DNA of 64,000 bases from contig OZ231126.1 in the NCBI GenBank assembly GCA_965153355.1, positions 46,562,001-46,626,000 on the forward strand. The letters run 5' to 3'. Below, in pieces: positions 830-25,470 of the stretch (position 1 is the first letter of the stretch; each line of letters begins with the position of its first letter). This DNA comes from Flaccisagitta enflata. Lineage: Eukaryota. Made by a program: the position numbers and the translations under genes. The notes under the pieces were generated by a model. That model was not told the origin of the DNA. It worked only from the letters and a program-made list of their open reading frames with translations, and ran no database searches.

Positions 830-3800
830 CTTCGTTATCTCATCGTTTACATTGACCATGAGCGCCTTGTTGTCATCCGTGAGTGGTTGCACGAAGACAT
901 TCTGCCAATCTTCAATATGAGGAATCAAGGCTGGAAAACTTTTGACGCTGCTCAATTGTTCTAAGGCGAAGAGAGGGACGGACTCGGCCATAATCTTTGG
1001 TGGCGGTGCGACTTGAATGGCGGGAACTGGAGCTTGGGTCGTGGCGTGTCCAGAGGACACCAACAACTCAGCAAGAGAGACACCATCTCCTCGCTTGGCA
1101 ATGACGGAAGCGACGCCATCGGTAGATTTTCCTACGACTTGAACGGACACGGGTCCAAAAATGGGAAATTGCTCCTCCACGTAAGCCGATGATTCCGGCG
1201 CCCATTCCAAAGCGCCTTCCGGCAGCGGATACAGAGGCGGAGACGTCTCGCAGCAAATGGCGAGTGAGGGTAAATTGGAGTGCAGCGAAGTTGCCGTCAT
1301 GGGTCGTAACTGAGCGGGATTAAGCATCGCGTCTTCGCCGTAATCGAGGTATCGGATGGAGACGAGTCCCGATGAGTCGACGGGTGAAGTGACTCGAGCG
1401 CGAGACCACTGACCATCGGCGACCACCCAAGCGGCGACAAAATCGCCTGAACAGATAGAGGATTAAACGGAAAAATCATCAAAACAAGTTCATTTGTTAT
1501 TCTCTGTTTTCATTGACTAACCAGCCATATCATCATACCGACAGCAGGGGCGAAGTTTGGATTCGGTGGTGAACCGGCGTAAATACGATTCAACTCCTCG
1601 CTCACACCGGCAAATCTTCCTAAGATTTCGTCGTCTACTTTCCAAATGGAAAAGCGACCGGGCTTGGCGTGATAGACGATCGTGGCTTCGATCATGTCAC
1701 CGATTTTAACGTCATCGCCGGCGGAAGAAAGATGAAGAGGAGGTGGCGATGGTTCTTTAGGGGGCTGGTGAGCATCGACGGGTTCGGACTTGGTCGATAT
1801 CTCCGGTGGACGAATCCAATCGGCGTATCCAGCGTTGACGAAGACGGTCGCCAAATCGTCGTCGCCACATCTGATGTCGACCTGAAAGTGACGAATATTA
1901 AAGAAAAAGTGGGAATACATGAAGCTGAATTAGGAACTATGTTCTTGACGTGAAACCACTTGATATCTGATCAACTCATTTCCTCGTTATTATTTAACAA
2001 AACAGATATCAGGTTTAAAGTTACTTCGTCTCTTAATACCCGTCATTACGAGGTTCAACCGTGTTTCGTACCTTGTGTCTCGAAAAAAGAGAGTCCGCCG
2101 CTTGATTTTCTCTGACGACAATTTTCAATTCCTTGAGCAGCAATTGCTTGAACAACGCCTGAACGTCGGCGGGCCAAACCAGCGCCCCATTCTTGGGAAC
2201 AACGTTGGCCAAGGCGCAAGGAACGACTCTCGAGGGCAATTCGGCGAATTCCGCCGGCAAAGGTCGGATGTCGGACAACTGCGTCGAGGCCGAGTTGCCG
2301 TAATCGGTGAACCACAAAATCGGGTTGCCATCGACCGTTTGCGAGCCCGGTTTAATAACGATGGCGCGAGAAAACTGCTCTTCGAAAAACGCCAGCACGG
2401 CGCGACCAAGGCCACAAACGTCGTCGTCGTTACCACCTGCTGCACTGATAGCCGGCATTTGCCGTAAAGACGTCGTCAAACCGGCTAGAGTGGACTCCAT
2501 GGAAATGTAGCGCACGTCGTCGGCCGACTCGAGAACGGCGAAATCTCCCGGGCCAGTGGCGTCAAAAACGGACAGAGAAGCTGAGGAACCCACTTTCAAG
2601 GTGCGGACTTCAACACGCGGCAAAGACGTCGCGGACGTGGCAACTGACAGAGGGGAAAATGGCCGAACGGAATAAGGAATCGAATAATAATTCACAGTAA
2701 CAAGCGATATGTCGATTCAGATCTTGAGAAGAGCGATGAAAAAGATAGACATGGTGATATAGGAAGAATGTCAAAATTTTGAGAATCATACCGGGACCTT
2801 CCCTGGAATCCTTGACCGATTGGAGTTTCTTCTTTGCGCAAACGTTGCGATGAACGGGCCAATCTTCAGTTTGACAATCTCGAGAGCAGTAAGGCTCTTT
2901 GCACGATCCACACTGTTGTCCCGCTTGCTTACCACATCCGACGCAAATGCGTTGACTCCTGGGTCTCGGAGAAGCGGAACGCTACCGATGGCAAAGGGAG
3001 AGGGAAGGGAACATGACAAATTTGAGGAGATATTTCATATGTTCCAAGAATACAGTTCAAATGTTTTAAAATGGTCTGAAATGGTTAAAAATGGTCTAAA
3101 ATGGTTTAAAATGCTTTGATATGTTTTGAAATGCTTCCAAATGTTTTCAAATATTTTCTAATGTAATAAAATTTCATACGTTCCAGGAATTCTGTTCAAA
3201 TTTATCTCGAGAGACAGTAAGTCTAGTCAATTTGGGATAAATATTGTACAAAGATAAGGACAAGGAACAATTACGATAACAGATGAACAAAGCCAACACC
3301 TATAAGTTGCGTGCGGGACATAAACAACTTCAGATGACTAAAATTGACTTTAAATGACTCAATATGACTCAAGATTGACTTTAAATGACTCAAGATGACC
3401 TGAATTGACTTAGAATGACCTAAATGACTAAATTGACCTCATTGACTCAAGGGACTTAACATAACTTAATATGACTTAAAATGACTTAGAATGACTTAGA
3501 ATGACTTTGTCACTTACGACTTTGAGTCACTTACGACTTAAAATGGCATTTGGGAAGGAACTGTGAGCCCAAAAGACTCAAAAACGCCAAAAAGTAATAG
3601 TCGCAAAAGCGTTAGATGGTCAGCGGTACCCGTTGCCCCTATGTGAGTATGTGTGAGTGTGTGATGGTGAGAGGGGCAGCGGCCCCGAAGGGGCCGATGA
3701 CCTATGCTTAGTAAGTTTTGAAGTTCTAGGATTGAATTTGAGCATCAATAAGGGGATTTGAGCCTCAAGACTGATTTGAGCCTCGAGGCTGTGATTTGAG

Positions 3801-5558
3801 CCTTGAGGCTGCGGTTTGAGCCTCAAGGCTGTGATTTGAGCCTCATCCTGGGATTTGAAGCTTGAGGCTGTGATTTGAGTCTACAGGCTGTGATTTGACC
3901 AATGAAGCTGTCATTTGAGCCTCATGGCTGTGATTTGAGGCTTGAGGCTGTGATTTGAGGCTTTAGGCTGTGATTTGAGCCATGAGGCTGTGATTTGGGC
4001 CTAAAGGCTAGGATTTGGGCCTCAAGACTAAGATTTGGGCCCCAAGGCCAGGATATGAGCTTCGAAGGGGGTGGACGGAGGAGAAGGAGAAGAAGAAGAA
4101 GAAGGAAAAATTTCCCCTATGTGTGAAAGCATAGGTCATCGGCCCCTTCGGGGCTGCTGCCCAAAAAGGGGACCGACTGACCCACCAACCAACAAAGCGG
4201 GGTGTAGAGTTGCGTAGCACGCGACTAATAGTCGCAAAAGCGTTAGATGGTCAGCGGTACTCGTGCCCTGCCTAAGTAGGTTGTGGTTGAAGTTGAGGGG
4301 GGAGCAGGGCAGCGGCCCCAAAGGGGTCGATGACCTATGCTTTCACACATATGGGGGATTTTCTCCTTCTCCTCCTCCTCCATCCCTCCCCCTCTCAAAT
4401 CCCAGTCTCGAGGACCAAATTCCAGTCTCGAGGTTAGAATCCCAGTCTTGAGGCCCACATCCCAGCCTCAAGGCCCAGATCCTAGCCTCAAGGCCCAAAT
4501 CCTAGCCTGGAGGCTGAGTTTTGGGCCTCAAGGCCAGGATCCGGGCCTCTTGGCTGAGATTTTGACATCGAGGCTGAGATTTGGGCCTCAAGACTGAAAA
4601 CTGGGCCTCCAGGCTAGGATTTAGGCCTTAAGGCTAGGATTTGGGCCTTAAGGCTAGGATTTGGGCCTTGAGGCTGGGATGTGGGCCTCAAAACTGGGAT
4701 TTGAGCCTCGAGACTGGAATTTGGTCCTCGAGACTGGGATTTGAGGGGGGGGACGTAGGAGGAGAAGGAGGAGAAGGAGAAAATCCCCCATATGTGTGAA
4801 AGCATAGGTCATCGACCCCTTCGGGGCCGCTGCCCAAAAAGGAGGAAACGGGCAAAAGCAAGAATCGAGAAGAGCAATAAACAGAGATGAATGCATAAAG
4901 AGATGAAATCAATGAGTCGAGAGACCATTACAAAAACTAAGAACTACGAAACCTGAGCTTGAGACATCTCGGTCGCAAAGGCTTCTTCCTCCATCTTTTG
5001 TTGCTTCCTTTTGGCAAGCTCCTCGTCGGACAGCGCAATGGCGACTTTAATTTGATGAGCTTCGTCAATTTTGGTTCCATTGAGCGCCTCGATGGCGGCG
5101 CTGGCTTCTCGAAAACTGCCGTAAGTGACCCACAGACGGGACAGCTGTGGATTCGTCACGTCGGAACTGCGACTGATCTCATCAACTTCTCCATATTTGG
5201 CAAACATTTCTTCCAGTGAAGTTGTGGTGCATCGGCGTGGAATACCTACGGAAAGCAGAGGTGTACTCTATGTTCACCGTAACAGGACAAAATACGAAGT
5301 TGTAGCATTGAACCATCACATCACATCCGCGGCAAATATACCGGTTATGTATAGCTTGGTGATCCTCTTTTCAGCCGCGTCCCTCCGCATTATCTGCACT
5401 TGACGAGCATCGCCATTAGCGACGACGCCATTCATGCTTTGCTGCTGCGCGTGGAGATCCGCGCCGATCCCGCGTTGATACGAGTTGAAGTTGGCGTTGA
5501 CGTGGGCATCTGCACTCGGATCCCACGTGTCCAAACGGACGGAGCCACACACGGACAT
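830..5558 (-). CDS. RRM + MYND zinc finger + at least 3 extended Tudor domain protein (Vreteno/Veneno/TDRD1-like piRNA pathway factor); 3' end beyond the window
   Basis: Phase-consistent GT-AG exons 5558-5342, 5245-4953, 2981-2792, 2643-2072, 1881-1539, 1446-830 (744 codons so far). RRM: KLYITGIPR...[11 protein letters not shown]...[59 protein letters not shown]. Tudor cores: FSRAIV...WFTDYGN and WSRARV...RYLDYGE. A third eTudor begins ([13 protein letters not shown]) before the donor at 829. Confidence 0.85.
3330..3545. repeat. degenerate ~10-bp tandem repeat (ATGACTYAAA-like)
   Basis: Repeated tgact/aatgac units in the Tudor gene intron. Confidence 0.7.
3596..4840 (-). mobile_element. two tandem non-autonomous elements with subterminal inverted repeats and internal 20-21-bp tandem arrays (HINE/MITE-like)
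   Basis: Copies at ~3596-4165 and ~4227-4840. Both begin AATAGTCGCAAAAGCGTTAGATGGTCAGCGGTAC. Each carries GGGCAGCGGCCCCRAAGGGGYCGATGACCTATGCT and its reverse complement flanking GGCTRGGATTTGRGCCTYRA-type arrays. Confidence 0.7.
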
Positions 5559-5895
5559 GGCGGTGGGAGATGTGGATTAATCGCGTATGGTTGTAACGTG
5601 TAAGCGTTTCTACTTATTATGTTGATGCCCTTAAATGGGTATAGGTTAGAACTCTGCAAAGACACCAAGCCGTAAATTTATGAGGCATAGTTGTGAACGG
5701 AAAATCGTAAGTGTGCGTGTTACGAAATACTACCAGTCACGTTAACAATAACAAGCGACTGATGAATAAATATTCCAACAAAAACAAAGATAGAATTTGT
5801 AGCATGGAGCACAAAGTGATTGACAAGCAGGTATTTGGAAGAATGGCACTTGAATGAATAAGAACACCGTTACTTTAACTGATCAGTTCCACGCG

Positions 5896-6966
5896 TCATA
5901 ACATTTCCGCCAGGTCCATAATGGAACCGACGTAAAAATCAGGCAAAAGAGAACGCAACGGCATTCCGTGGTGGGTTCCACCTTCACTAGACTGACAATA
6001 CCGCATGATATCGACAGATGTGACGCCCGAGAGTACGGCGATGGACGCGATGCCATTTCTTCTGGCGAACCCCACATCTGACCTCAAACTGTCGCCGACC
6101 ATACAGGCCCTCGTTGCGTCGAAATTCGGCACATTTGCGCAAATCGCCTCCAAGATGGCGGGGCCGGGTTTCCCGACGTAGGTCGGCTGTCTATCCGAGC
6201 AAGTGGCTATGCATTGTGCCAGACTTCCGGCTATAGGTTGAACGCGTCCCGGAGAGAACTCATAACCAGTTTCCCACGAAGTAGCGAGAAAGTGACACTG
6301 CCAATCACTGACACCGTCGCGTCTCTTCAAGTAACTCGCGGCTTTTGTCAGCTTCATGAAATTAAAATGCTCGTCCTGGCCGATCACAACGACTTTGACA
6401 TCGTCAACCAGCGGAATAGCGAGAATGTCCGCCAACTCGAAAGAAGGCGGTGTGTTATCCGCGCCATTACCAAAATGATTGATTCCGTGAGTTGTGAGTT
6501 CTTCCTCCAACCCTTTGGATCCCATCAAATACACCGAGTCGTTCGGTTTCTCCAAAAGCTGTTCCAACTTAAAGCGCATGACTCGATTTACGCTGAAATT
6601 GTCGTTTGGTGAGCAAACGTAACCCGTCATCCGATGGATTTTGTCGTTGAGCGCTTGCGTCGAGGGAATGCTGTTATTGGAGGCGAACAAGATGGTTTTC
6701 CCTTTGTCTCTTAACTTGCCCAGTGCGTGCTGCACGCGATCGAACCTTTGAGCGTGATCAACGTGCCATATCACGCCGTCGCAATCCAAAATGAGGGTGT
6801 CGAAACGATCTAATATCCCCAGCGCGTTTCTTTTCGTGATTTCCACCGGCCATGAAGATGAGTGAGAGGAAAGGTTTTTGACTAGAGTCGCGGACAATGC
6901 ATTGAAGGCATATCGGAATGGCACATTCACAAGTGTCAAGTTTGGTTTTGCTAAAAAAGCTGCCAT
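5896..6966 (-). CDS. HAD-superfamily class IIA phosphatase (phosphoglycolate/pyridoxal phosphatase-like), intronless, 356 aa
   Basis: Motif I LILDCDGVIW, motif II ASNNS, GKP, motif IV MVGDSLRSDVGF, VLSGVTS, C-terminal PDFYVGSI. The N-terminal extension is basic/hydroxylated and may be a mitochondrial presequence. Confidence 0.9.
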   Translation of the reverse strand: MAAFLAKPNLTLVNVPFRYAFNALSATLVKNLSSHSSSWPVEITKRNALGILDRFDTLILDCDGVIWHVDHAQRFDRVQHALGKLRDKGKTILFASNNSIPSTQALNDKIHRMTGYVCSPNDNFSVNRVMRFKLEQLLEKPNDSVYLMGSKGLEEELTTHGINHFGNGADNTPPSFELADILAIPLVDDVKVVVIGQDEHFNFMKLTKAASYLKRRDGVSDWQCHFLATSWETGYEFSPGRVQPIAGSLAQCIATCSDRQPTYVGKPGPAILEAICANVPNFDATRACMVGDSLRSDVGFARRNGIASIAVLSGVTSVDIMRYCQSSEGGTHHGMPLRSLLPDFYVGSIMDLAEML

Positions 6967-7028
6967 TCTAAAAAAAGTGTATTTCTGGTGAGGGGAGAAA
7001 CTGGTGGTGCTTGAACATTAACAACATT

Positions 7029-7100
7029 ATTTGAAATATATCATCCGTTTGACAACGAGCTCATTTGAAAAGCCTTTCATCATCAAACATCATGCCAAAT
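7029..7100 (-). promoter_or_regulatory. eukaryotic SECIS element, type II
   Basis: Minus strand reads ATTTGGC-ATGAT-GTTTGATGATG-AAA-GGCTT-TTCAAAT-GAGCT-CGTTGTCAAAC-GGAT-GATATATTT-CAAAT. This gives an AUGA/GA kink-turn core, an 11-bp helix II fully paired with G-U wobbles, unpaired AAA, a 5-bp apical mini-helix, and helix I ATTTG/CAAAT. It lies downstream of the UGA-containing SPS2. Confidence 0.88.
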
Positions 7101-7217
7101 GAAGATGAAGTTGAATCAAGCATTCTGGTGTACATCATGAACCATTATTCCATTAACAATTTTAATCTACTGATCAACCATGATCAATATAAAAAGTTTC
7201 ATTTGAATTAAATCAAA

Positions 7218-8519
7218 AAAATCTGATCAGTATCTGGGTCCGCGACGGAAGGGGGTGAAAGATCACCAATTCCATAAGATCGCTATCACCAAAAGATCGC
7301 TAACCCTGTTAGAGTCTCCATACAAAGTTTCATGCAAATCCATTGAAAAATGGCAAAGTTATGCACGTTTCACTTTTAGGCTAGTAGGGTGGTTGGGTGG
7401 TAGGCTGGTTTGGATAAATAGTGTGCATATGTTGAGTTCTTCCATTTAGAGACTCTATATCAAGTTTCAACCAAATTGGTTGAAAAATGTCCAATTTATG
7501 CAAGTTTGTTACTTTTAAGACGGTAGGCTGTTTGGGTGGTAGGTCGGTTTGGCCGGTTAGCATACTCAAACGTAAATAAATCACGTACATATGTTGAGTC
7601 CTTCCATTTAGAGACTCCATACCAAATTTCAACCAAATTGGTTGAAAGATGCCAAGGATATGCACATTTTTCGCTTTTAGGCTGGTAGGCTGGTTGGATG
7701 GTAGGCTGGTTTGGCAGGATAAATAGTGTGCATATGTTGAGTTCTTCCATTTAGAGACTCCATATCAAGTATCAACCTAATTGGTTGAAAAATGTAAAAG
7801 TTATGCAAGTTTTTCACTTTTAAGCCAGTACGCTGGTTGGGTGGTAGGTCGGTTTGGCCGGTTAGCATGCTCAAATGCATATAAATCATATACATATGTT
7901 GAGGCCTTCCATTTAGAGATTCCATACCAAATTTCAGCCAAATCCGTTGAAAAATGCCTAAGTTATGCACGTTTTTCACTTTTAGGCCGGTAGGCTGGTT
8001 GGGTGGTAGGCTGGTTTGACAGGATAAATAGTGTGCATATGTTGAGTTCTTCCATTTAGAGACTATATACCAAGTTTCAACCAAATCAGTTGAAAAATGA
8101 CAAAGTTATGCAAGTTTTTCACTTTTAGGCCGGTTGGCTGGTTGGGTGGTAGGTCGGTTTGGCCGGTTAGCATGCTCAAATGCATATAAATCATATACAT
8201 ATGTTGAGTCCTTCCATTAAGAGACTCCATACCAAATTTCAGCCAAATGGGTTGAAAAATGCCAAAGTTATGCACGTTTTTCACTTTTAGGCCGGTAGGC
8301 TGGTTGGGCCGGTTGGGTTGGTCGGATCACAAAAATCGGATAGGATGTAAAGCGCCTAACCCTATTACAACTTCCCACCAAATATGAACCAAATCGGTCA
8401 AAGCATAAAAAAGTTATCCATTTTTTAAAATCCGTCACAACGACGACGACGACGACGACGACACCCACCCGCCTGGAATTATAGTCCGCGTCGGAATGAT
8501 ATTCCGTCGCGGACAAAAA
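7218..8519 (-). mobile_element. Helentron-associated/DINE-1-like non-autonomous element with ~305-bp internal tandem repeats, inserted between the SPS2 stop and its SECIS
   Basis: 13-bp subterminal inverted repeats GTCCGCGACGGAA (7238-7250) / TTCCGTCGCGGAC (8502-8514). Extra IR copy at 8484-8496 forms a terminal hairpin. (GTC)n microsatellite at ~8441-8462. T-run flanks on the minus strand. Repeat unit recurs at ~7412, 7717, 8022. Confidence 0.75.
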
Positions 8520-8616
8520 TTGAGACCAATAAAGTAAAATCATTCGACTAGCGGTTGGCTCATTGAACAAGAAACAGGAGCGCACAAACACTGGAAATGT
8601 GAACGTCGAAAGTCCT

Positions 8617-11090
8617 CTACCACAACTCATCTTCCCTCTCAACTGAAGGAACTTCCGTGATTCGCGGATTGTCAATGATTCGCGCAGTTCTTCCACCACA
8701 CACAACCTCGCCAACGACCCTGATAGTAATAGACAATAATGTTTCAGAAATGACTAAATCAGCAAATCATACTGTACACCGTGCATTTCTTTGATGATAA
8801 AACAGTCGCCACGATGACCCAGCTTTTCTATGAGAACCTCAAAGCTTTAAGAAATACACCAAAATCCTCACCAAGCCGGCAATCCTTCCTCCTCACGAAT
8901 GTCTTTCACAAAAGCATCCGCGGCTTCCTTAGGTATGCAGAGGAGCAGCCCTCCACTGGTCTCGGCAGAATATCCTTGCAGCAACCCAAATGCGATGCCA
9001 CAAGTTTTGGCGACTGGAACCATTTTAGCGATGATCGGAAGATTATCAATCACAAACTCAACTTCGTTTTTCTGAACCTGATATTGATGTAGTAAATAAA
9101 GAGCACAAGCCCGAGTGAGTGAGGTTCATTCTTTAATCTATATTCGCTCTTTTGTCCCTACACAAGGACGTCCCAACTGTCATAATTACATAGTAACATT
9201 CTGGTAGGCCAAAGCAAATGACACATACCTTGGCCATATTCGCGGCGTGACCGAGAATCCCATAGCCGGTGACGTCAGTCGCGCAGTGAGCGCCATGCTT
9301 TTTCATTAAACGCGCGCCGACACGATTTAACCTCGACATAGACGCGGCGGCACGTTGGAAGGCCTTGACGCAATCTTGAGGAGTAATTATGTTGGAAATA
9401 CGATCCCACCATTCGTTCTTTTGATCCATCCATTGGTGGGCGTTGACGGCTATTTGTGTACCCAGTGGCTTAGTGAGAATAAGGACATCTCCGACGCAAG
9501 CGCCATCGGGAGAGATGAATCTGAAAATTTAAAAAGATGGACTATCCACTAAATGAAGAATCAGAATCAAATTAGTCAATTTCCTAACATGAACAGTGGT
9601 TTTACAATTCAACGTGAACAAGGACAGGTTTCACATACATTTACGTATTAGTGAAAACAGAAAAAGTCAGTACTTTCTAGTGGAACAGCCAAATCTCTGT
9701 TCAATGACAAAAAAGAAAGAGAGAAAGTTTTAATGTTTTTAGGGAGACAGATTCTGGGAAAGAGATCAAACGGAAGAACAATGGAAAAGGAGAAGAGAGG
9801 TGAACTCTTTGCCCCCTCCCTCTCGGAATCCACCCACATCACGACTGGTATTTCTTCAGTCATTGAACAAAGATTTGGCTGCACAAACAGAAAGTTATGA
9901 CTTTATTGACCAACAATGTATGTGAAACCTCACTTTGATGTTTTTCTTCATCTAATTAGAATCAACATACATTAGAATCGACATACATTAGAATCGACAT
10001 ACATTTTAATGTACATTTTAATCATGTTGCCACAAAATGCCCAACTATGTCATTGCTTTTGACTAGGATAGCAAACGCTCTTGCGCAGCTCTTATGTGGC
10101 TGCGATAATGTGGAGAGGGGTAGGAGGAGAAGAGGATGATACAAAAACAGTAACTGAAAACATGACTACCGCTGTAAAACCTGGCATTCACAGCACATTT
10201 ACTTCTCATACACAGTAACTTACTCATCGTTAGAGCACACGCTGCTCGCAACGCCTCCGATCATCATCCAAGGATTGGGAGCAATTTGGCCACCCCTGAC
10301 CATGGCGCCTCCTTCCTTGGCGCAATCTCTAAATCCCTCCAGCATTTTGCCAATAACGACGTCCCGCTCTTCGTCGCTCAAGCGCGTGGGAATGCCGCAT
10401 ATGAGTTCCACGTTATCGCAGTCAGTCACGCCCATGGCGTAGAGGTCTGACAGGACGTTGGCGCAAGCGATTCTTCCTTGCATATATGGATCCTCGACCA
10501 AGGGATAGAAAAAGTCGGTCGTTTGGATAAGCGAAAGATTTCCGTGTCGTAGAGGAAGGATGCAACAATCGACGCCGATGCCGATGCGTTTTCTTTCTGG
10601 CTGATCCTGCCCGGGTACCTGAGGTGAAGTTTCGTCGATAATTTTCGTGCAATCGTCGCCATCGCAGACGGAAGTTTGGGCATTGGAAGATTGGTCGGGA
10701 TCAGCTGTGGAGCGATCGCCATTACCGTTATCCTCTTGAAGACCCTCGAGGAGTTTACTGCGGAGAAAAAAATATGTGACAAGGAGTCGCAATATCGTTG
10801 TTGACGGGTGGGCAGGGGCATCCAAACCCCAGCCCAGATGGTCCGACGGGTGGACGGATGGATGGACTCAGCCTCTTATAGAGTCGCGTGTCCGCAACTA
10901 AAAATATTTTATTTTCATGAGCGAACCTCAAACCGTCTTGTGGTTTTTAAGTAACGGGTGAAAATGACAAAACTCACAAGAGCAACTCCTGAGGGACCTT
11001 GCAGCCTCATCCTTTTAAGTCGGCAAGCTTTGTAAGACGAAATTCCGGATCCAAGCCGTGGGCCGACGGCGAGAAGGTACCTTGTTCCAT
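8617..11090 (-). CDS. SEPHS2: selenophosphate synthetase 2 (selenoprotein, Sec28), 415 aa
   Basis: Exons 11090-10978, 10757-10224, 9520-9229, 9077-8872, 8719-8617 (1248 nt, phases consistent). Sequence: [44 protein letters not shown]...IGVDCC...[32 protein letters not shown]...[21 protein letters not shown]...[13 protein letters not shown]...ETSGGLLL...[39 protein letters not shown] downstream. Confidence 0.95.
11007..11009 (-). other. in-frame UGA selenocysteine codon of SPS2
   Basis: GGA-TGA-GGC-TGC-AAG at the conserved U/C-x-x-K catalytic position of SelD/SPS2. Confidence 0.93.
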
Positions 11091-11345
11091 CTTTTTAGAG
11101 TCAATTTACCAGCAAGCTAAAGTCCCTGCAATTCGCAGAATTCAGGAATTGAATAACATGTAAACAGATTACTAAATCAAGCGAACAGTTCAGTAAGCGA
11201 CAAAAATCAGCTGATTGAGACTGGTTGATCGTCAACGCATTTTCAGACGAATCAAGGAGAAAAAGAACGTTAAAAATTATCTTTGGAAGACGCATTTGAT
11301 CAGCATCATGGTGACAAAATGTTCAGTCAGTAGCAAAACGACGTA

Positions 11346-12090
11346 TCATATTCTATCCAAAACTTCCATCGTGACGACGGAGTTCCCTCGAACGACGACT
11401 GTACCGAGTGTGGCTTTGACCCCCTGTAACGACACCTCCGAAGCACTGTCGACAACCTGGAAAGGGGTGGGGGCGAAGGGAACAGGGGGTTGTTTGATAT
11501 CATAAGACTATATTAGAGTCGACATTCATCGCATACACTTTTTCTTATAAGAACCTAGTTAATAAGAGCAAGGCTTGAAATTTCTCCAAAATTACAGGGG
11601 TGTATATAGTTGAGCGGCTTTTGATTTTATTCCCCCCTGCCTTTGATTTTCTTCCCCACGACACGTCGCGTTACAAAATCTTTGATTTTCTTCCCCATAA
11701 AGCTATAAAACAGTTTATTTTAGGTTTAAATAGTGTTAAATTGTGTTGTAGTAATTGTATTTTACCTTTTGGTATTACCAAAAGTGTTAGATCTTCAAAA
11801 AATTTCTCTTTTCTTTTTTTCAAACTTTTGATTTTCTTCCCCATCTCCAAACCCTTTGATTTTATTCCCCCCCCCCCGGGGGGGAATACTCAACTTTGTA
11901 ATATTACCAGCGTTACAGATGATATTTCCGTAACACTTCAGACAAAATACACAAGCAATCTTACCAGATTCATGAATGGATCAAAGCCTCGCAAGAGACC
12001 CTTGACTTTGCGCGTGCGACCGACTTGAATGAGAACTTTCTTGTCAAGAAGCTTTTTCAAGTCGGGGTAGTTGTTCATTCGCCCAGACAT
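11346..12090 (-). CDS. SNRPG: small nuclear ribonucleoprotein G (SmG)-like, divergent, 78 aa (absent from ORF track)
   Basis: Exons 12090-11965 and 11456-11346. Sequence: [78 protein letters not shown]. Sm1 [11 protein letters not shown] and Sm2 GxVVxRGNS are SmG-type. Confidence 0.85.
11595..11893. mobile_element. truncated hAT-type MITE in the SmG intron
   Basis: Starts CAGGGGTGTATATAGTTGAG. Near-identical, in reverse orientation, to the complete copy at 45437-45719. Confidence 0.75.
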
Positions 12091-12969
12091 TGTGTGTGAC
12101 AGATTAATCAGAGTTTGAGTATCTTTTTATTCGTCGTTATTGATCAGGGTTAAGATCAGCTGATTGGACTCGTGACTGGAAACAAGATCAATTTCAATAA
12201 AGCAATTGAAAGACTCATAATCGGGAATTGTCGATGAGATTGCCAACAAATATGTCAGAAGAAGAAAAACAGCTTGGGCGGTACGAACTTCAGTGGAATT
12301 AGGAATACAAAGGCAAATCTGCGTAGATTTCAACATGTAACTAGTAATACCGAAAGGAATACAACAAGGAACAAACAAAAACGCGCTCCGAGCGGTGATG
12401 ACCAAACATACACGTCTATGAAAAATACTGATATCCCCCCCCGTTTATCAATTACACAATACACACATTATACATCCCTATGCACAAAGTGATATTTAAC
12501 TTTCTTACAATTTACTTAAGTATTTCTTAAATTCTTGAGACCAGTCATTGCAGAATATAACCCAGCCAAATCAAACCGATAACAATCGATGATTGCAATC
12601 CAAATAAAACACAGCTTTCTTTCCCGAGGTGCGATACGTTACATTCATGAAATCACATCGTTAAAGAGTCAAGCGACCAGCGTCAAGTTAAGTATTTTCA
12701 CCAACTCTAACAATTCATATCGCCACTTCGTCAAATCTATAGGTGAATAAGACGCAAATCTCGCGACAAAGAAGCGCAATGTCCGCAATAATGAAGCCTA
12801 CACAGTGCGAAGCACGGTACTGTAGAAAAAATAATAAAAACATCAGATAAGACAGAATGTAGACACACCTCATCCGGCGAGGCGTCTGAAAAATCCGCTA
12901 ACTTACTAACTGCACATTGAACTGGAGAACCAAGCTTTTAAATTGTCTGCCCACGGGTCGAGGGGCAAA

Positions 12970-14533
12970 TCAACTGGCGCCTAGTTGCGGCTTTTCATAC
13001 GTTTCCAATGTCGTTCTTTTCAATTCCTCACGGAAAAAGGCGATGGTTCTGTTGAGACCTTCCCTCATGGAGATTTTTGGTTCCCAACCGAGAGTCTTTT
13101 TGGCCCTGTCGATGTCGGGTCGTCGTCGTCGGGGATCGTCCTCCGGCATGGGATCGTGCTTCACTTCCGAATTTCCCCCAACCAACTTTTTGATGATTTT
13201 GGCAAAGTCCAAAATGGTGTGCTCTTCGGGATTACCCAAATTCACCGGTTGAGAGTAATTCGAGTTCATCAAAGCGATTAGCCCGTCGACCAAGTCCGAC
13301 ACGTATTGAAAGCTCCTAGTTTGAGAGCCACTACCGTAAACAGTGATGGGTTTGTTTTGAAGCGCTTGTATGATGAAGTTGGATACGACGCGACCGTCGT
13401 TCAGGTGCATGCGCGGTCCGAACGTGTTAAAGATACGCGCCACACGTACTTGCACTTGTTCCTGTTTCTGGTAAGCGTAGCACATTGTCTCGGCCACGCG
13501 TTTTCCTTCGTCGTAGCACGCGCGCGGTCCGATGGGATTGACGTGGCCCCAATAGGTCTCCTTTTGCGGATGTTGGTCGGGATCACCATACACCTCGGAA
13601 GTAGAGGCGAGTAAAAGTCGAGCGTTGACGCGTTTCGCCAGTCCCAGCATATTGATGGTGCCGACGGTATTCGTTTTGATTGTCTTAATGGGATTGTACA
13701 TGTAATTCGGCGGAGACGCCGGTGACGCCAAATGGTAAATTTGGTCCACTTCAATATAAATGGAATTCACCACGTCGTGATTGATCAACTCGAAATTGGG
13801 GTGGCCGATCCAGTGCTCTACGTTTCGCTTACGTCCGGTGAAAAAGTTGTCCACGACTACCACCTTAGAATTAAGATAAAGGAGGCAAAGGAAATTGGTA
13901 GAGGAAAATAGAAAATCCAAAATTCGCAATCAGGCGGTCTTCAGTACGCGATCAGTGGGTCAATAAGGGTCAAGGCTAGATCAACATTAAGCAAATAAGT
14001 TCCAAAATCTTGTCCATGATCCAATTGTTCTACACACTTTAACCCAATCCTGGCCTTATCGCCCTGCCACTAACACTACAGTTAGATGTTAGATAAAGTT
14101 AGACGCTTTGCCAGGAAAAATCCGCTGCAACAGTGCATAGATTTACCTCGTGACCTTCCGCCATCAGTTTATCGGTCAAGTGACTTCCAACAAAGCCCGC
14201 GCCTCCCGTGATCAGGATTCGCTTTCGATCTTTAACGTTACGAAATTGGACCGTGGGATAGCTTTTCCTGGAAGCCTCTAATTCCACGATTCTTTTCTCC
14301 ATTCGTTCGATGTGCTCGGTGAGCTGCTCGATTTGCGATTGTTGCCGCCATTTATTGGCCTCACTCTTCCGCACTTCCTTCGGCGAGGGATGAGTATTCG
14401 AGACGTCGTCAAGTTCGCTCGATGTCAACTTCAAAATCATGCAAAACGTCAGTAATGCGATGGCAGAAATCATCATCAGCGTCATCTTTCTCAAACGGAG
14501 GGCGGACAAGGATCTCAAATCCCAAGGGCGCAT
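12970..14533 (-). CDS. UXS1: UDP-glucuronic acid decarboxylase 1 (UDP-xylose synthase), 426 aa
   Basis: Exons 14533-14147 and 13863-12970. N-terminal type II TM anchor, [66 protein letters not shown]. Confidence 0.96.
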
Positions 14534-15552
14534 AATAGCCGCTGTCAATTCTTCATGCGTGTCCCATTTGAATTGTTCGCGAACCGCACATCTCCTTTAA
14601 AACACGTGTCGAACGTGTTGTTACATCTGAATTGCAGTAGGATAATGTATCATTGAGGTAAAACATACTTCGTGATCAATACAAAAATACGTTGTTCTAC
14701 TACGATATTCGCCCGAACAAGATCATGCCAATTGGCTTCCTAATTTTCTTAATCGCGATGGAAAAAAATCCATCGATGCTCATTATTATCAAGTGCCTTC
14801 CTAATAAAACTCTGATAGATCTTTATAAAACGCGCGCAGAAACAACGATAAGTGCCTTTCCTCCACGACAGCGCGCCAACCACTGACTTATGCACGAGTT
14901 CATCAGTCAGATCTCATGGTAAGCGACACAATCGTAAAGGATTCTTTCGGGGGTGAAGCTGGCCCATGACCCCAAAGGCAATTGCGTAGACAGATGGGAC
15001 AGAGAAACAAAGAAAGCGGTGCTGAAGTCCTAAATCTAATCAAAGTGGAATGAGAGACCATGGTGACCATTCAACAGGTTCTTTTTTTTTCAAAATACTG
15101 CAGAAGTAAAAAAAACGCAAAGAAATCGCGATGACTGTTCACCATTTAAAAGGATTATCCTCCAAGCGCCAAAGTGATTAAGCTAGTCATAATAGATAAG
15201 AATGGGCCTGCTCGCGTCTCGCCGAGAGCCGAGACATTCAGAACTATGTATACAAGTGGATCTCGAGAAAAAGAGGAACAGTAACTACACATTTTTTTCC
15301 GTATTAACCATCACAATGTGACGAGACAAGTGAAGAAGTCTCTCCAGGGAAGCGTATGTGTACCACAAAAGTAATCACAGTTCCTTTTGTAAATCAAATA
15401 TAAATACGGTCAAATCCTATGGGTCCCCTACATTACATCGTTCTGTTCAATCAACGCAAAGTCAAAGAGAGAGAGATGGGCGTATGGACGAAACCATGGG
15501 TTACGTAATATCGTCTCATTCCATCGACCGTCCATCTCTCGTTCTTCTTAAT

Positions 15553-16020
15553 TTAGGCGTCGGAGGGTCGTTTTTCCGCGTGCTTCTTCGTAAATTCTTC
15601 GGCAGATTTGAGAAACTTTTTCTTGTCGCGCGTGAATTCTTCGGCGAGATCGGATCGAAGTGGATGATCGGGCTCTGGGTCATTGACCAGGGCCACGAGG
15701 CTTTGGATAACCTGATCGGTCTTAGTCGCCGGCTTCCAGTTCTCCGTCGAAATAATCGGCAGGCAGACTTGGCCCTTTTCATCGACGTTTGGATGGTAGA
15801 TCTTTGTTTTGAACGTAATTTTTGGCGGTTTGAAGGGGTACTCGGCCGGAAATATGATTTCGATTCGAAATGCTCCCTTGTTGTACGGCGCGTTGTCCGG
15901 AACGATAAGGCCTTGCCAACAGAGAATGTTTGACTCGTCCACGACAATATCACGGAATGACTTGAGCGCCGAACCGCGAATGTCCTGCAATTCTTTCGCC
16001 AAGCGCCGGGTGGCCGCCAT
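15553..16020 (-). CDS. UBE2L3: ubiquitin-conjugating enzyme E2 L3 (UbcH7), intronless CDS
   Basis: [11 protein letters not shown]...[52 protein letters not shown]...EPDHPLR...[13 protein letters not shown] matches UbcH7 throughout. Confidence 0.95.
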
Positions 16021-16954
16021 GCTTATCGTCGAGAAATTATCAAGTTAATAGTTTTTAATTTTTTCGCAAGTCTTTCAGACAGATTATTCAAGGAGACCCA
16101 CTGCGCTTCTGGTTATAACGAGAGCTAGTACGGCAGCGATACCGATAATTACGTGATCTCTACAAAATCTGTTATTCAAAAAAGGAACAACCAATGGAAA
16201 AAGGAGTAATCCAGAGGCGGTTTGCCAATAATTTGTAAAACAGGAAGAGTATGGCGGTTACGGCAAAAATCCTCAAAAGCGTCCTGAATAGGAATCTTAC
16301 AATTCCGTGGGGGTAAATTGGTTTACTGCAGTGATCACATAAATACTGACGCCAAGATCCAGAACTGTGCAAAGTCTATTTAGACTAGAGAACAGTCAGT
16401 GATGGCTTTTAATAATAGGAAGAAGCATGATTCGAAAGAGTATCAAATTAAGAAGCAAATCGAAAAAGCGGCATCATTGCGTGGCATAAAATGACTAAAG
16501 ATGCGCTAAGAATTGTAAAGAATATTATATGTATATGATTAGGTCCTACTACATAACGCTGTCCATGAACAACCGGCGCTTTAAAGAGAGTACAAATCCC
16601 TCCAAAAAGCTCACTTCTTCCATGAATGTCTAAATTGTCTATCTAATAGTTGGTGACTAGGTTCATTGCCAAAATACGATACAATAAATAACTAATTTCA
16701 TCGCTCGCGTCGATACAGTAGCTGCTGTTTTGACTAACACTCCCGGAACAGTTAACAGTATGAAAAAATGGATAAAATCAAGATCTTTACGAAAAAAACT
16801 TTCCCCTAAAACTCGCACGCATATCTTTTCATTGGGAGCCAGAAAAAAATACTAGATCTTGTTATCAACCACTCAGTCTTGATACAAACAGGTTTTTTTT
16901 TCAATCAAAATTAAATCACCATGCTTGGCTGAGGATCTTAAGAACTACGGTGTA

Positions 16955-17137
16955 CAGTTGAACCCCGCTCAGACAGACCCGCTACCAACAGAATTCCGCT
17001 TATAACACACTTATAACACATATTATAATCCCTTCAAATTTATTTCTTTTACTTCCTTTGTTGGTAATAACTGAAGTCCACCTATAAAAGAAAAGAAATG
17101 TTGGTCCCCTGAAATCCAATAGAGCGGGGTTTAACTG
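16955..17137. mobile_element. Tc1/mariner (Tigger/pogo-like) MITE
   Basis: TA|CAGTTGAACCCCGCTC ... GAGCGGGGTTTAACTG|TA. Confidence 0.75.
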
Positions 17138-18114
17138 TATTATCAAATCAAGATTGCATGTACTTTATCCAACCCACGCCACCTTTCTTTCTGCTGTTTT
17201 TAGTCGCATGCACCCGACTATACAACCCGCTTTGTCCGTCCGTCCGTCCGTCTGTCTGTCACACTTGACTTTTTTTTAATTTCAGTCATTTTTAATCATT
17301 TTTAGTCATTCTAAGCTATTCAAAGTCATTTTAACTCATAAGAAGTTATGTCAAGTCAGCCTAGCAGGCGACTCATACTCACTACGCAAATATCAAGGTT
17401 ATACAGTAGCTTTCGAATTGTCCCATCCCTAGCTACCCCTAAAAGCTGAATATAGGTTCATTAGGTTGCAATTGCTCATGATTTAAATACCTACCTATTA
17501 CGAATTCAATTTATCCCGATTGCCCACGTAGAAATATGCACCTAGTTTTCAATTAAAGTGTCACTACATGAAGTATGAAGTACCTGATCAGTGATCTGGG
17601 CGTTGGTAAATGCTGAGTGCAGGTGATACTTAAGTTTGTATAATAAATACGCAGGTTGCCATAATTGTCAGTACGCAAATCTGTTTACCGTGGGACAAAA
17701 TATAAATGACACCATCGATCAAACTTGTGAGTATTCTGCATTTTGAGCATACGCTTGGACCTGTGTAATACTGACCACACCTAAAATACTGACTTCAAGT
17801 CTAGTAGCGGCTACCTGTGGGAAAACCATCTAATATGGTACATTTATGCAATAAACTAGAGTATATCATTTTTTGAAATTTGACCCTAATCCCCGACCTC
17901 CCTAATCAGTGCGCTTTCCTAAAGACAATTCTTACTAATCATATCAGCTCCCAAAATAATAACGAAAGCCGAGGGCCGACGCGTCAGTCACATCATGACA
18001 TGCAGGAGAGATCCAACCAATACTGTCATAAAACGCCCTTACAATAGTGGACATGTTTAAAGACAATGAGAATTCAAAAGCTTTAGCCAACAGTTCAACA
18101 GAAATTGAGGAATA

Positions 18115-18431
18115 CCGTATTTCTTGCATTTATCGCCCCCCCTCAAATTAGCGCCCCCCCCTTTTGATGAGAGAATGACTTAATGACAAATTATCTTTTA
18201 ATGGGAAAAATCTTTTTGATTTTTTTGCAAAAACCACATGAATAGAGCCTGTAATACAGCAGAACTCAATTTTTTAGTATTCTACTGCACTGAAATATAA
18301 TAGATTTGTCAAAAAAAGTTAATTTAATGTAAAATCATGTACATATAGGTTACTAGGGGGGCGCTCAATATAGGTTAGAAATGGCATTTTAATTTGGAAA
18401 GCGCCCGGGGCGCTAATTACAAGAAATACGG
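18115..18431. mobile_element. Tc1/mariner-type MITE
   Basis: TA|CCGTATTTCTTGCATTTATCGCCCC ... GGGCGCTAATTACAAGAAATACGG|TA. Confidence 0.8.
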
Positions 18432-18505
18432 TAGGCTAGTTTCAAGAAACCGCAGTCCAACTTAAATATATTAACACACTATAACATCAATCTTATACTC
18501 ATGAT

Positions 18506-19246
18506 CAGAGGTGCAGATTCTACAAGCTGCCCCACAGCAGAAATTGGCAATCTTGGCTGCCGCACATAGATATTGCAGAGAAAACACTGATTTTTTTAAT
18601 CGCGTGCTACGTGACTCTATAAGCCACTTTTTGGTTGGTCGGTCCGTTGGTCCGTAACAAAACTTTAAAAGGCTTTTTACACAAAATGAAGACATTCTAA
18701 ATGTTTTTGAATGTTTCTAAGGCATTTATAAGCCTCTATAAGCCACTTTTTGGTTGGTCAGTCGGTCTGTCCATCTGTTTGTCTGTCTGTCACAAAGTTG
18801 TTTGAAGGGTATACAGCCAATTTAAAGACATATTAAATGTTTTTGAATGTTTTTCATTCATACACCTCTATAAGCCACTTTTTTGTCCATCTGTTTGTCT
18901 GTCCATTGGTTTGTCATGCAGTTGTCTTTAAGATTTTTTGTTGCTAGTTCCGAGGTCTTTTTAAATGTTTTATTCTGTTCATCTGTCTGTCTGCCTGACT
19001 TTTCTGAAAATGCCGATGCACGCGACTTAGGTCTAATGACCTTGTTTGCATTTGACCCTCATAACTATGATAAGCCTGTATTCATTTTTTTGCCTTCTGC
19101 ATTCTTTTTCTCGTAATCAAGTTGGTATTCCACAATTTCATGTGCTTTTGATATAATTTCACCATATTTTATCCTAGTCTGATGCCCCTGCTGCACATTT
19201 CTGCCACCCTGCTGCGTAGCATTGCTACATGCAATCTGCACCACTG
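18506..19246. mobile_element. degenerate TIR element (hAT-like) containing a HINE-like insert
   Basis: CAGAGGTGCAGATT ... AATCTGCACCACTG termini with imperfect TSD. Internal HINE-like sequence at ~18595-19045. Confidence 0.5.
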
Positions 19247-20071
19247 AAATCATGATTAACTAAATATTTTTCTTTATTTTTCTATATTCAATATTTTTTC
19301 TATAAAAAATGATATAAAAGAAAACAATAGATCTCTAATCATTCAATAAATCAATCTGTTCAGTTGGCCCGCTGTTTTCAGAAACAGCCAATACAATAAA
19401 AAAATTTATATTTATAAGTTAATCATAACTTGAAATCAAAGATGTATAATTCAGTTGTATATTTTAGTAACGCAGGGAATACCACGTGAAACATTAAATT
19501 TAGGACCTGCTGACTTGGGACTTGATCTCACCAATTCCACAAGAGAATTTTCTGTTTTTTCACCCAAAATCCGGAAATGCATGACAATGAAGCACAGTCG
19601 GTTTTTAATCAAACCTCTGATTACTCGCCATGACTGATACAATAGAGTAGAGCACCGCTGGAGCGCACCCGCTATTAAGGCATGCCCGCCTATAAGGCAT
19701 ATAATGTGCGGTCTCATGAAAGATTTTGTAGTTATTTGATTACTGGCAATAAAGCAGCTTCACTTTGGGCATAATTCTGTTCAGCTCCATGGCATGCGCT
19801 TTAGTGAAGCTCAACTGTACATCTAACACAGCCATAATTCTCAACTGACAATTTCTTGGAACTATCTTGAAGTTTTAAATTTAGTACATTGCTTCAAATT
19901 CTTGGTATCAAAATGTCCTGGAATTCGAAGTTTGGTTATTGTGACAATTTAATGTGTTAAATTAACTGTTTTAAATGAGCTGAAATTTTAGAAAATCATT
20001 ATTTCTTTCAGTAGTTTTATAAATTAAAGGTAATTTGATAAAAATTGTAGCAAATCATCTGGTATTATACA

Positions 20072-20400
20072 TAGTAGGTTGGCCTAAAGTGGGCTCATAG
20101 TCAAATTTCATGATGCCATTGGAGAAAATATGATCATTTCCCTGATACATAAAGAATCCAAGATTTGAGGGTGATTAAAAAAAGTTTACACATGACCGCC
20201 ACCCCACCCATTTCCTATTATAAGAAAAAATCTTTTCTGTACATTTTCTATAGAAAATAGGGGGGGGGGGTGGCGGTCATGAGTAAACTTTATCTGATTA
20301 CCCCCAAACTTTGGAATTCTCATTTATGATGGAGATGGTCTCATTATCTCCAATGGCAACATGAATTTTGAAAATGATCCCACTTAAAGCCACCCTACTA
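20072..20400. mobile_element. fold-back MITE with ~150-bp imperfect inverted arms
   Basis: TAGTAGGTTGGCCTAAAGTGGG ... CCCACTTAAAGCCACCCTACTA. The arms are alignable across their length. Confidence 0.75.
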
Positions 20401-21695
20401 TATGGTGAGGCATCGCTAGAGCACATATGCTTTTAGGGCATACCCTATAAGGCATAACAGATGATTCTGTAGTTATTTGCTCATTGGCAATTGAGCAGCG
20501 TAATTACAGGGCATAAATTTGCTCAATCCCTTGGCATGCGTTCTAGTGAAGCTTAACTATTCTTCTGATCAGTGATCTGGCTTCTTAGGTTTCCCCCTGT
20601 CCCAGAAATAATTTTTTTAAAGATCTTTTAAACACCTTTTTCCCTACATGGTTATTCAGAAACGGTTTCAACATTCCAATTGCAAAAATTACATCTAAAT
20701 ATCTTTAATATTAGCCCAATCCGGCATTTCCAGCTCAAACCATATAGAAATGAAAGCAAGTTAGAGAAAAAACAGCCTTGCCAGCCATCTTCAAAAAAAG
20801 CTAAATATTTTTTTTGCCATTTGTGATTAATGACCCTGTACTTCTCTTAGAATAATACTAACCAGTAACCATCCTGCGGGCTAATTTGCATAGATTCAGT
20901 CTGTCGCCTTGTTCTCGGGCTCGATTTAATTATCTCGATGGCACTATTCAGCTTAACATGCACAAATGAATATTGAAGGTTTTTCAAACTAGCACCAATA
21001 CTGGTGCGTGCGCCAAGTCAGGTTTGAAGCTGCCAGCGCGGCATACATAAAATAATGCCGGCTTTAATGACCAACGAATCAGAAAAACACTTTCATTATC
21101 ATGAGTTGGGGCTAATCAGAGAGTTAATGTACTAATTCTTCAAAATTTATAAGCACAATGGGCGCGAATTAGAGCAGACAAAAAAACGTGCGATAAATGA
21201 CAACTAGAGTCAACTATGTATAACTTACAAGGCTAAACAACTACTCTAATCAATCAAAAGCTTGCTTCGACAAACTCAATAAAAGGCAAGAGGTTCGTTA
21301 TCAGATGAAGGTATCTACTATAAAATGGATACGAGCCCTCCAGCTGTCTTTATAACGGGTTTCAATGTAAATTCAGCTTTTCTTAATACTTTGCCTACGT
21401 CAATACTGGAAGTGGGGTCCAAGGGGTGGGGCATATCGGGAATTCACAGCGTCGATAAAAGGGTAAAACAGCATGTCATACTCGTGTAAGTATTAAAACA
21501 AGTCCCAGAGGGACGCGAGAGGCTTCTCATTGATCATCGGCTCTCAACTAAGGAATAAAAGATGTTTACATATTACATAATAATTACATCATTCATGTAG
21601 TTTTTATATTATATATAGTATTTATCAGGGAAAAGGTCATTTGCAAGATTGGCAAGCACGGCTTCATAGTGCAATAGGAAAATACAGTTATTTCA

Positions 21696-24641
<2,946 letters not shown>

Positions 24642-25470
24642 TGTCGTTGTAAAGTTTTTCCACACGATGGGAGAAGAGTTTATCATGGTTGACTTAGAAT
24701 ATATGCGGAGTGAAAATATATGTGCGAACGCTTCGTATTTCAATGAACTTTCCGAGTAAATAACGCTCACCAAAGCGCAGAAAAAGCGTTGTTAATCGGT
24801 CGAGTCGTGAATCCGATCCAAGGCAAACTTGCGTCGGCATCGCTCGCCCATTTTTGCACCGACGTTGATAAACGAGTTTTAGGGCATCTGGACAAAAACG
24901 GGGGAAGGTAATATCATATTATTGATAGGAAATTTACAATAGGAACGCCGATATAAATTAGCCTAACTGGGGTGGAAAAGTGGGGGGGCTGGACTAGACA
25001 GTATTGAGGTGGGCAACGGAGAAATTGTTTTCTGTACGCGACAATGGGACCCAGGTAATCCCGGGGGCAGTCACCACCGCAGATTTCTCAGCTGTTTTTC
25101 CGCCATTCGAGTGCAAAAGCGCCGACACAACCCGGTACTCCGAAACTACTCGACAGCGGCTGCTCTTTTGTTCGGAAAGAAAGGTTTCCATGGAATCCTA
25201 GACGCACTGGTCTCTATCATGTTATACCCATAAATCGTTACGTCATGTCATGATAAACAAGAGCAACTCGGGCTGAAGGATACATCGTGAGAAGCAAATC
25301 TGGCCCAACCCCCTACTTACCATCCTGAACAAATCACACCCTGCGTTACATGACCTCAAATTACCATGCCTTAGATGACATTCTGAGGTTTTACAACTCA
25401 ATACAAGCATCAACGAAAAATCGTTCCAATGAACCAAAGAGGGGGATCCGGCAGCAACACAAACTCCAAA

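Follow-up and report, generated by a model that had tools for sequence, protein, structure and literature searches.

A probable spliced leader-resolved operon without intercistronic DNA in the chaetognath Flaccisagitta enflata

Results

Six co-oriented genes on the minus strand

A 64,000-nucleotide (nt) stretch of the genome of the planktonic chaetognath Flaccisagitta enflata (assembly GCA_965153355.1, contig OZ231126.1, positions 46,562,001 to 46,626,000 of the forward strand; referred to hereafter as the window) was analysed for a probable operon resolved by spliced leader (SL) trans-splicing. Six consecutive, co-oriented genes occupied the minus strand from 830 to ~16170, with no plus-strand gene among them; they were delimited from stop-to-stop open reading frames (ORFs) and Pfam matches, and the spliced models gave complete reading frames. 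A first-pass annotation, made from the sequence alone, had claimed six minus-strand genes here (UBE2L3-UXS1-SmG-SPS2-HAD-Tudor), and Pfam and PDB names bore out this content. It had estimated stop-to-start distances of ~1020, ~880, ~255, ~1650 and ~340 nt; spliced models and a reading of the sequence gave ~1019, 879, 255, 1650 and 337 nt from stop to ATG, in gene order from UBE2L3 to Tudor. The products cover ubiquitin conjugation and the metabolism of nucleotide sugars and of selenium, and include an Sm protein, a phosphatase and a Tudor protein of germline type.

The most upstream gene contains a UQ_con domain at 15553-16044 (minus strand, as for all features of the six genes), and the best PDB name of this E2 enzyme was UBE2L3 (E 2.3e-84). 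Its mRNA (16168..14627) is a single exon with the coding sequence (CDS) at 16020-15553. Epimerase/GDP_Man_Dehyd domains at 14099-14596 and 12970-13929 identified the second gene, for which UXS1 was the best PDB name (E 1.3e-159); the mRNA model (14626..12176) has exons at 14626-14145 and 13861-12176, an ATG at 14533 and a stop at 12970. The third gene encodes an SNRPG-like protein of SmG size with an LSM domain at 11938-12126, and its mRNA (12175..11126) comprises exons 12175-11963 and 11454-11126, with the ATG at 12090. The fourth, an SPS2-type selenophosphate synthetase (11125..6969), has AIRS/AIRS_C domains at 10220-10867 and 9133-9528, with selenide water dikinase 1 as best PDB name (3.4e-50). 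Its five exons have ends near 10978/10757, 10224/9520, 9227/9075 and 8871/8718; the ATG lies at 11090 and the stop at ~8617.

The fifth gene (6967..5655) is a single exon with its CDS at 6966-5896. The HAD domain (5896-7017) and the best PDB name, glycerol-3-phosphate/pyridoxal phosphatase (8.4e-35), assign the protein to the PGP/PDXP group; a comparison with metagenome contigs gave 71 loci with a best identity of 35%, and there was no chaetognath orthologue among them. A predicted acceptor AG at 6969-6968 stands one base before the ATG, and the 3' untranslated region (UTR) is predicted to run to 5655. The last gene (5653..830, ATG 5558, predicted acceptor AG 5655-5654) encodes an RRM-MYND-Tudor protein. 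Its Pfam matches were RRM_1 at 4944-5267, zf-MYND at 2610-2981, and TUDOR at 2033-2716 and 830-1462, that is, at least two Tudor domains; PDB matches to TDRKH/TDRD1 were weak (~2e-5). The gene extends beyond a GT at ~830 toward the window edge. Beyond this GT, positions 5-752 hold a 750-bp purine-rich low-complexity array (AAGAAAGAAGGA-like, ~62 copies), which presumably belongs to a Tudor-gene intron extending off the window. The genes are intron-poor: UBE2L3 and the HAD phosphatase (5896-6966) are intronless, and UXS1 has one intron (UBE2L3 and UXS1 together, 14533-16020).

Metatranscriptome contigs cover four of the genes

A run search with the window stretch returned marine metatranscriptomes (17 rows from seven studies, the best sharing 0.38 of the sampled words). 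The RNA evidence covers region 8330-18300 and consists of Logan contigs of three marine metatranscriptome runs from two studies (X1 and X3 of study P1, X5 of study P2), together with raw reads of run X18. For the contigs, 24 of 477 pieces and 21 of 63 loose ends (letters beyond a contig stop) were displayed. The contigs were 95-99% alike to the window.

UBE2L3 was covered by contigs at 14628-16125 and 14930-16168, and UXS1, at low depth, by contigs at 14240-14610, 12623-13129 and 12217-12414. Contig joints with GT..AG on the minus strand were found at 8718/8871, 9075/9227, 9520/10224, ~10757/10980, 11454/11963 and 13861/14145. Summed contig depths were ~3-7 for UXS1, 40-137 for UBE2L3 and 57-125 for SmG, so that neighbours differed 20-40 fold. 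The raw reads of X18 ('organism A', poly(A) RNA-seq, ~6% of the run) gave 14 partial fits, all on repeats at 8431-8497 and 17231-17260. This run, probably from another species or too divergent, is uninformative on the operon either way.

Chaetognath spliced leaders on UBE2L3, SmG and SPS2 mRNAs

The first-pass annotation had suggested looking for a common non-genomic leader at the acceptor AGs. When this was done with the metatranscriptome contigs, chaetognath SLs were found at 16168, 12175 and 11125. Non-genomic 5' leaders were thus present on the UBE2L3, SmG and SPS2 mRNAs, three of the four RNA-covered genes, in four contigs and at three acceptors, as 20-26 letters beyond the contig stops. 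Reverse complements of the loose ends were compared with the 3' ends of the leaders in Table 3 of Marletaz et al. (2008; PMC2481426). The UBE2L3 leader at 16168 (X3) was identical to the last 20 nt of SL2.0 (20/20) and the SPS2 leader at 11125 (X1) to its last 25 nt (25/25). At the SmG acceptor (12175), one leader (X1) corresponded to the last 22 nt of SL3.1/3.2 (22/22) and a second (X3) to SL1 with one mismatch (25/26). Three of the four fragments recur in that report, with 20, 12 and 3 occurrences, and the SL3.1/3.2 forms are known there only from F. enflata. Chaetognath leaders are described as unlike any SL of other phyla (PMC2481426), and their occurrence on these mRNAs marks the window as DNA of a planktonic chaetognath.

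The 20-nt end of SL2.0 had no match in the 64-kb window with up to three mismatches, and the genomic letters before each used AG differ from the leader. The leader is therefore not templated at the locus and is added in trans. We conclude that the UBE2L3, SmG and SPS2 mRNAs are SL trans-spliced. SmG carries two leader types, and SL2.0 occurs on both an early (UBE2L3) and a late (SPS2) gene. This mixed use agrees with the published absence of position-specific SLs in chaetognaths (PMC2481426; PMC12460157).

Polyadenylation sites abut the downstream acceptors

The acceptors used were AG 16170-16169 (UBE2L3), 14628-14627 (UXS1), 12177-12176 (SmG) and 11127-11126 (SPS2), that of UXS1 being placed from the poly(A) end of UBE2L3. 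The positions predicted in the first-pass annotation were exact for 14627 and 12176 and had to be moved further upstream for UBE2L3 (by 9 nt) and SPS2 (by 35 nt); the AGs that it named before HAD (6969-6968) and Tudor (5655-5654) are present in the sequence as candidate acceptors. Loose ends of 21 Ts, corresponding to minus-strand poly(A), began at 16168 (X1), 14626 (X3) and 11126 (X1). At 11126, the last templated base is the acceptor G and the following genomic base is G, so that the position is unambiguous and SmG mRNA is polyadenylated after G 11126. At 14626 and 16168 the following genomic base is A, and the start of the tail is compatible with a position directly after the AG; poly(A) of UBE2L3 mRNA starts from AG 14628-14627.

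At three of the four covered junctions (upstream RNA/UBE2L3, UBE2L3/UXS1 and SmG/SPS2) the upstream poly(A) site therefore abuts the downstream acceptor, and a promoter would hardly fit between the cistrons. At the fourth, UXS1/SmG, contigs of UXS1 depth (~4-5, unlike SmG depth) extend to 12217, 41 nt short of the SmG acceptor. The 3' UTRs measure 926 nt for UBE2L3, 794 nt for UXS1 (predicted, to the SmG acceptor) and 220 nt for SmG, and the 5' UTRs of UBE2L3, UXS1, SmG and SPS2 are 148, 93, 85 and 35 nt. The apparent spacers are thus a long upstream 3' UTR plus a short downstream 5' UTR, and there is no intercistronic DNA. A script scan for AATAAA/ATTAAA found neither motif in five of the six stretches scanned; the sole hit was an ATTAAA in the SPS2 3' stretch, at 7166 and 198 nt short of its end. 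One motif was thus observed against roughly four expected in ~4 kb by a rough base-composition estimate, a difference that is not significant alone.

SPS2, a SECIS candidate and a transposon in the SPS2-HAD gap

The SPS2 model contains a single internal in-frame TGA at 11009-11007 (motif ...DLKG*GCKVPQ...), which we take to be at the active-site position. By this TGA, SPS2 is a predicted selenoprotein gene, and a selenocysteine insertion sequence (SECIS) is therefore needed. A permissive search gave one candidate at 7029..7100 (minus strand; RF00031, 25 bits, gathering score 35, E 0.048, full model 1-64), the only SECIS match in 6900-8720. At the gathering threshold, Rfam gave zero matches in the whole window, and the fold of the candidate was no better than shuffles (z -1.2). 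In the assembly the candidate lies ~1.5 kb downstream of the SPS2 stop, past a transposon, and 60 nt upstream of the HAD acceptor. This position of a sub-threshold SECIS supports abutment of SPS2 and HAD, and we predict that the SPS2 3' UTR runs to the HAD acceptor.

The transposon is a non-autonomous DNA element of 1.28 kb (7238..8514) in the SPS2 3' UTR, with 13-nt perfect terminal inverted repeats at 7238-7250 and 8502-8514 (inverted ends GTCCGCGACGGAA) and an internal tandem array of 305 bp x 3.3. A contig of X5 matched 8718-8515 and continued into 78 loose letters, of which 28 of the 30 examined match 7214-7187. This contig skips 7238-8514, and the transposon is therefore absent from it; the insertion is probably polymorphic or recent. 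Without the transposon the native SPS2-HAD gap is ~350 nt. The first-pass annotation had read this gap as a transposon plus ~350 nt, and the inverted repeats, the array and the X5 contig agree with it.

A polyadenylated RNA upstream of UBE2L3

The poly(A) tail at 16168 indicates that some RNA transcribed from positions above 16169 has its 3' end at the UBE2L3 acceptor. The 3' part of this RNA (16989..16169, minus strand) had no recognisable coding sequence, and its poly(A) starts at AG 16170-16169. Its contigs (16257-16461, 16289-16607 and 16694-16989) were of low depth (~4-7). A search for a seventh coding gene among 54 minus-strand ORFs of at least 28 amino acids in 16169-21700 gave no Pfam match at or above the gathering score, and three weak sub-threshold matches (E 0.03-0.08). 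The upstream RNA could represent a non-coding 'cistron' at the head of the unit, a 3' UTR of great length or a polyadenylated UBE2L3 outron.

Further upstream on the minus strand, the nearest recognisable gene is 5.5 kb away, at 21696-24791. Both ORFs of this two-exon gene carry part of an Fz (frizzled cysteine-rich) domain (Pfam 2e-09 and 1.4e-12), and the tail is basic and rich in Q; on visual inspection the product looks like a secreted frizzled-related protein.

Other repeats in the window

Short repeats at 10661-10993 (SPS2 intron 1) and 16988-17320 reached a summed contig depth of up to ~2000 in X1. The X18 raw reads touched only the 17231-17260 repeat and the stretch near 8431-8497. The high-depth repeats look like a widespread, transcribed family common to relatives. 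Similar translated strings (...FDFLP.KAIKQ...), with G/C runs on the flanks, were found at 11560-11900 (SmG intron) and 45408-45701, with contig depth up to ~500 at 11631, which points to a dispersed family with two or more copies in the window. A LINE-type retrotransposon ORF, open for more than 1000 amino acids, occupies 28881-33022 on the minus strand (Exo_endo_phos 7.9e-12, RVT_1 5.8e-34).

Discussion

The stretch is probably an SL-resolved operon of the type without intercistronic DNA. RNA polymerase II would transcribe through the co-oriented genes; each downstream cistron would receive a leader of ~36 nt at its AG, with SL1, SL2 or SL3 all usable, and the upstream mRNA would end and be polyadenylated at the same AG. 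The RNA backs four genes and three junctions, and an extension to HAD and Tudor is plausible. We infer the 3' end at UXS1/SmG, the continuation into HAD and Tudor, and a single promoter; given the polyadenylated RNA ending at 16169, the unit may reach further upstream than UBE2L3. The single SL-resolved polycistronic unit of the first-pass annotation, which had named chaetognaths among the taxa with such operons, is thus upheld by SLs on three of the four covered genes and by three abutting poly(A)/acceptor junctions; its six-gene extent is borne out in part, and nothing contradicts it.

Several observations weigh against such an operon. No record bridging two cistrons was present among the 24 contig pieces listed (of 477), and a contig of that kind neither proves nor excludes a single transcript. 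The unequal depths of neighbouring genes would also fit separate promoters, depth being a poor measure. Among the 21 loose ends listed (of 63) there was no leader for UXS1, whose contigs end at 14610, 16 nt before the predicted mRNA start, and no poly(A) end at 12176 for UXS1/SmG. At 95-99% likeness to the window, the contigs derive from environmental relatives rather than the sequenced individual, and X18 yields no read-level support for the genes. The HAD and Tudor genes lie outside the RNA-covered region, the 1.28-kb transposon parts SPS2 from HAD in the assembly, and the SECIS candidate is below the Rfam gathering score.

Some of these points would be met by several shorter operons, for example upstream RNA-UBE2L3-UXS1, SmG-SPS2 and HAD-Tudor, each with its own promoter, the breaks falling between UXS1 and SmG, in the SPS2/HAD gap with its transposon, or between HAD and Tudor. 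We regard this arrangement as possible, if somewhat unlikely. It is in keeping with the missing poly(A) end at 12176 among the loose ends listed, with an SmG depth 20-40 times that of UXS1, with RNA coverage that excludes the SPS2/HAD and HAD/Tudor junctions, and with the insertion in the SPS2/HAD gap. In Paraspadella gotoi, moreover, the 1,470 validated operons comprise 3,565 genes (~2.4 each), and most are short (Piovani et al., 2025; PMC12460157). However, operons of nine genes exist in the phylum (PMC12460157), contigs of UXS1 depth end 41 nt from the SmG acceptor, the SECIS candidate brings the SPS2 3' UTR to within 60 nt of the HAD acceptor, and one environmental contig lacks the transposon.

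Independent monocistronic genes, each trans-spliced and driven by a promoter inside the upstream 3' UTR, would require poly(A) sites to coincide with acceptors by chance. About half of chaetognath genes are trans-spliced outside operons (PMC12460157), neighbours differ in contig depth and no precursor was found among the contig pieces listed; nevertheless, poly(A) fell on the acceptor AG at all three junctions with a poly(A) end listed, which is unlikely by chance, and by the argument made for Ciona intestinalis the production of either end requires transcription across the boundary (Satou et al., 2006; PMC1488885). We consider independent genes improbable. It is scarcely credible that metatranscriptome assembly produced the leaders and poly(T) ends as chimeric contig ends. 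Each loose end is represented by one contig, and the data are Logan contigs rather than reads, yet the four leader ends, found in two runs, agree with three SL forms published for chaetognaths and lie exactly after an AG, and poly(T) and SL ends share coordinates across runs (at 16168, SL in X3 and poly(T) in X1).

Chaetognath operons of this type entered the literature by 2008, and a genome-wide catalogue followed in 2025 (PMC2481426; PMC12460157); the finding will not surprise a specialist. In the RPS14-PCNA operon of Spadella cephaloptera, three bases separate the poly(A) site from the acceptor (Marletaz et al., 2008; PMC2481426). In P. gotoi, 10,197 of 21,072 genes are trans-spliced and 18% of genes are in operons, the longest of nine genes; operonic genes are housekeeping genes and are enriched among germline markers (Piovani et al., 2025; PMC12460157). 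The content of the present locus fits this picture of housekeeping and germline genes. The likeness extends to the same SL1, SL2.0 and SL3, to several SL forms on one gene (SL3 and SL1 on SmG), to a poly(A) site practically at the acceptor and to a gene number within the known range (up to nine). Position-specific SLs are reported to be lacking in chaetognaths (PMC2481426; PMC12460157). The locus differs from the Spadella and Paraspadella sets in its planktonic species and its genes, and from RPS14-PCNA in having 0 nt rather than 3 nt between poly(A) site and acceptor. Its gaps between CDSs, of up to ~1 kb, consist of 3' UTR, so that the rule of less than 250 bp between genes (PMC12460157) would detect the unit only with annotated UTRs.

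Outside the chaetognaths, the locus resembles the operons without intercistronic DNA of C. intestinalis, in which the upstream mRNA ends in AG plus poly(A) at the acceptor and AATAAA is absent in 16 of 18 operons (Satou et al., 2006; PMC1488885). The present locus shares the AG plus poly(A) at the downstream acceptor, the lack of AATAAA near the 3' end and a single SL population for monocistronic and operonic genes. In contrast, the phylum and the SL are unrelated, and most Ciona operons hold two cistrons, against at least four, and probably six or more, at this locus. According to the same report (PMC1488885), the upstream cistron still has a canonical AATAAA in the three fully characterised SL1-type operons of Caenorhabditis elegans; none was seen here. 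Resolution of a polycistronic unit by SL trans-splicing is common to this locus and to C. elegans SL2 and Oikopleura operons, but these have intercistronic regions of ~100 nt and 23-30 nt, respectively, whereas there is none here, and an operon-specific SL such as the SL2 of C. elegans was not seen at this locus (PMC1488885).

The 3' ends could in principle be made without the cleavage and polyadenylation machinery, the tail being added to the 3'-OH that trans-splicing leaves at the acceptor AG, although we think this rather unlikely. Such an origin was raised for upstream 3' ends in Ciona in 2006 and apparently left open there (PMC1488885). It is compatible with the present data because poly(A) was at the AG in all three ends, no AAUAAA or AUUAAA lay nearby and an RNA lacking an ORF ended at the UBE2L3 acceptor. 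That RNA would then be a polyadenylated outron and not a seventh gene, and a tailed outron that is stable would provide a first direct hint at 3' ends made by trans-splicing.

An RNA-supported example of an operon in a planktonic chaetognath has replaced a guess made from sequence; it spans four genes, and probably six or more, and its processing sites are placed to the base. The coincidence of poly(A) and AG without AAUAAA makes the locus a handy test case for whether upstream 3' ends arise by cleavage or by trans-splicing, and for whether both neighbouring mRNAs can come from a single precursor. Gaps of ~1 kb between CDSs in chaetognaths can be zero-distance operon junctions because the gap is wholly 3' UTR. 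Such units would be missed when operons are counted by short intergenic distance and UTRs are not annotated.

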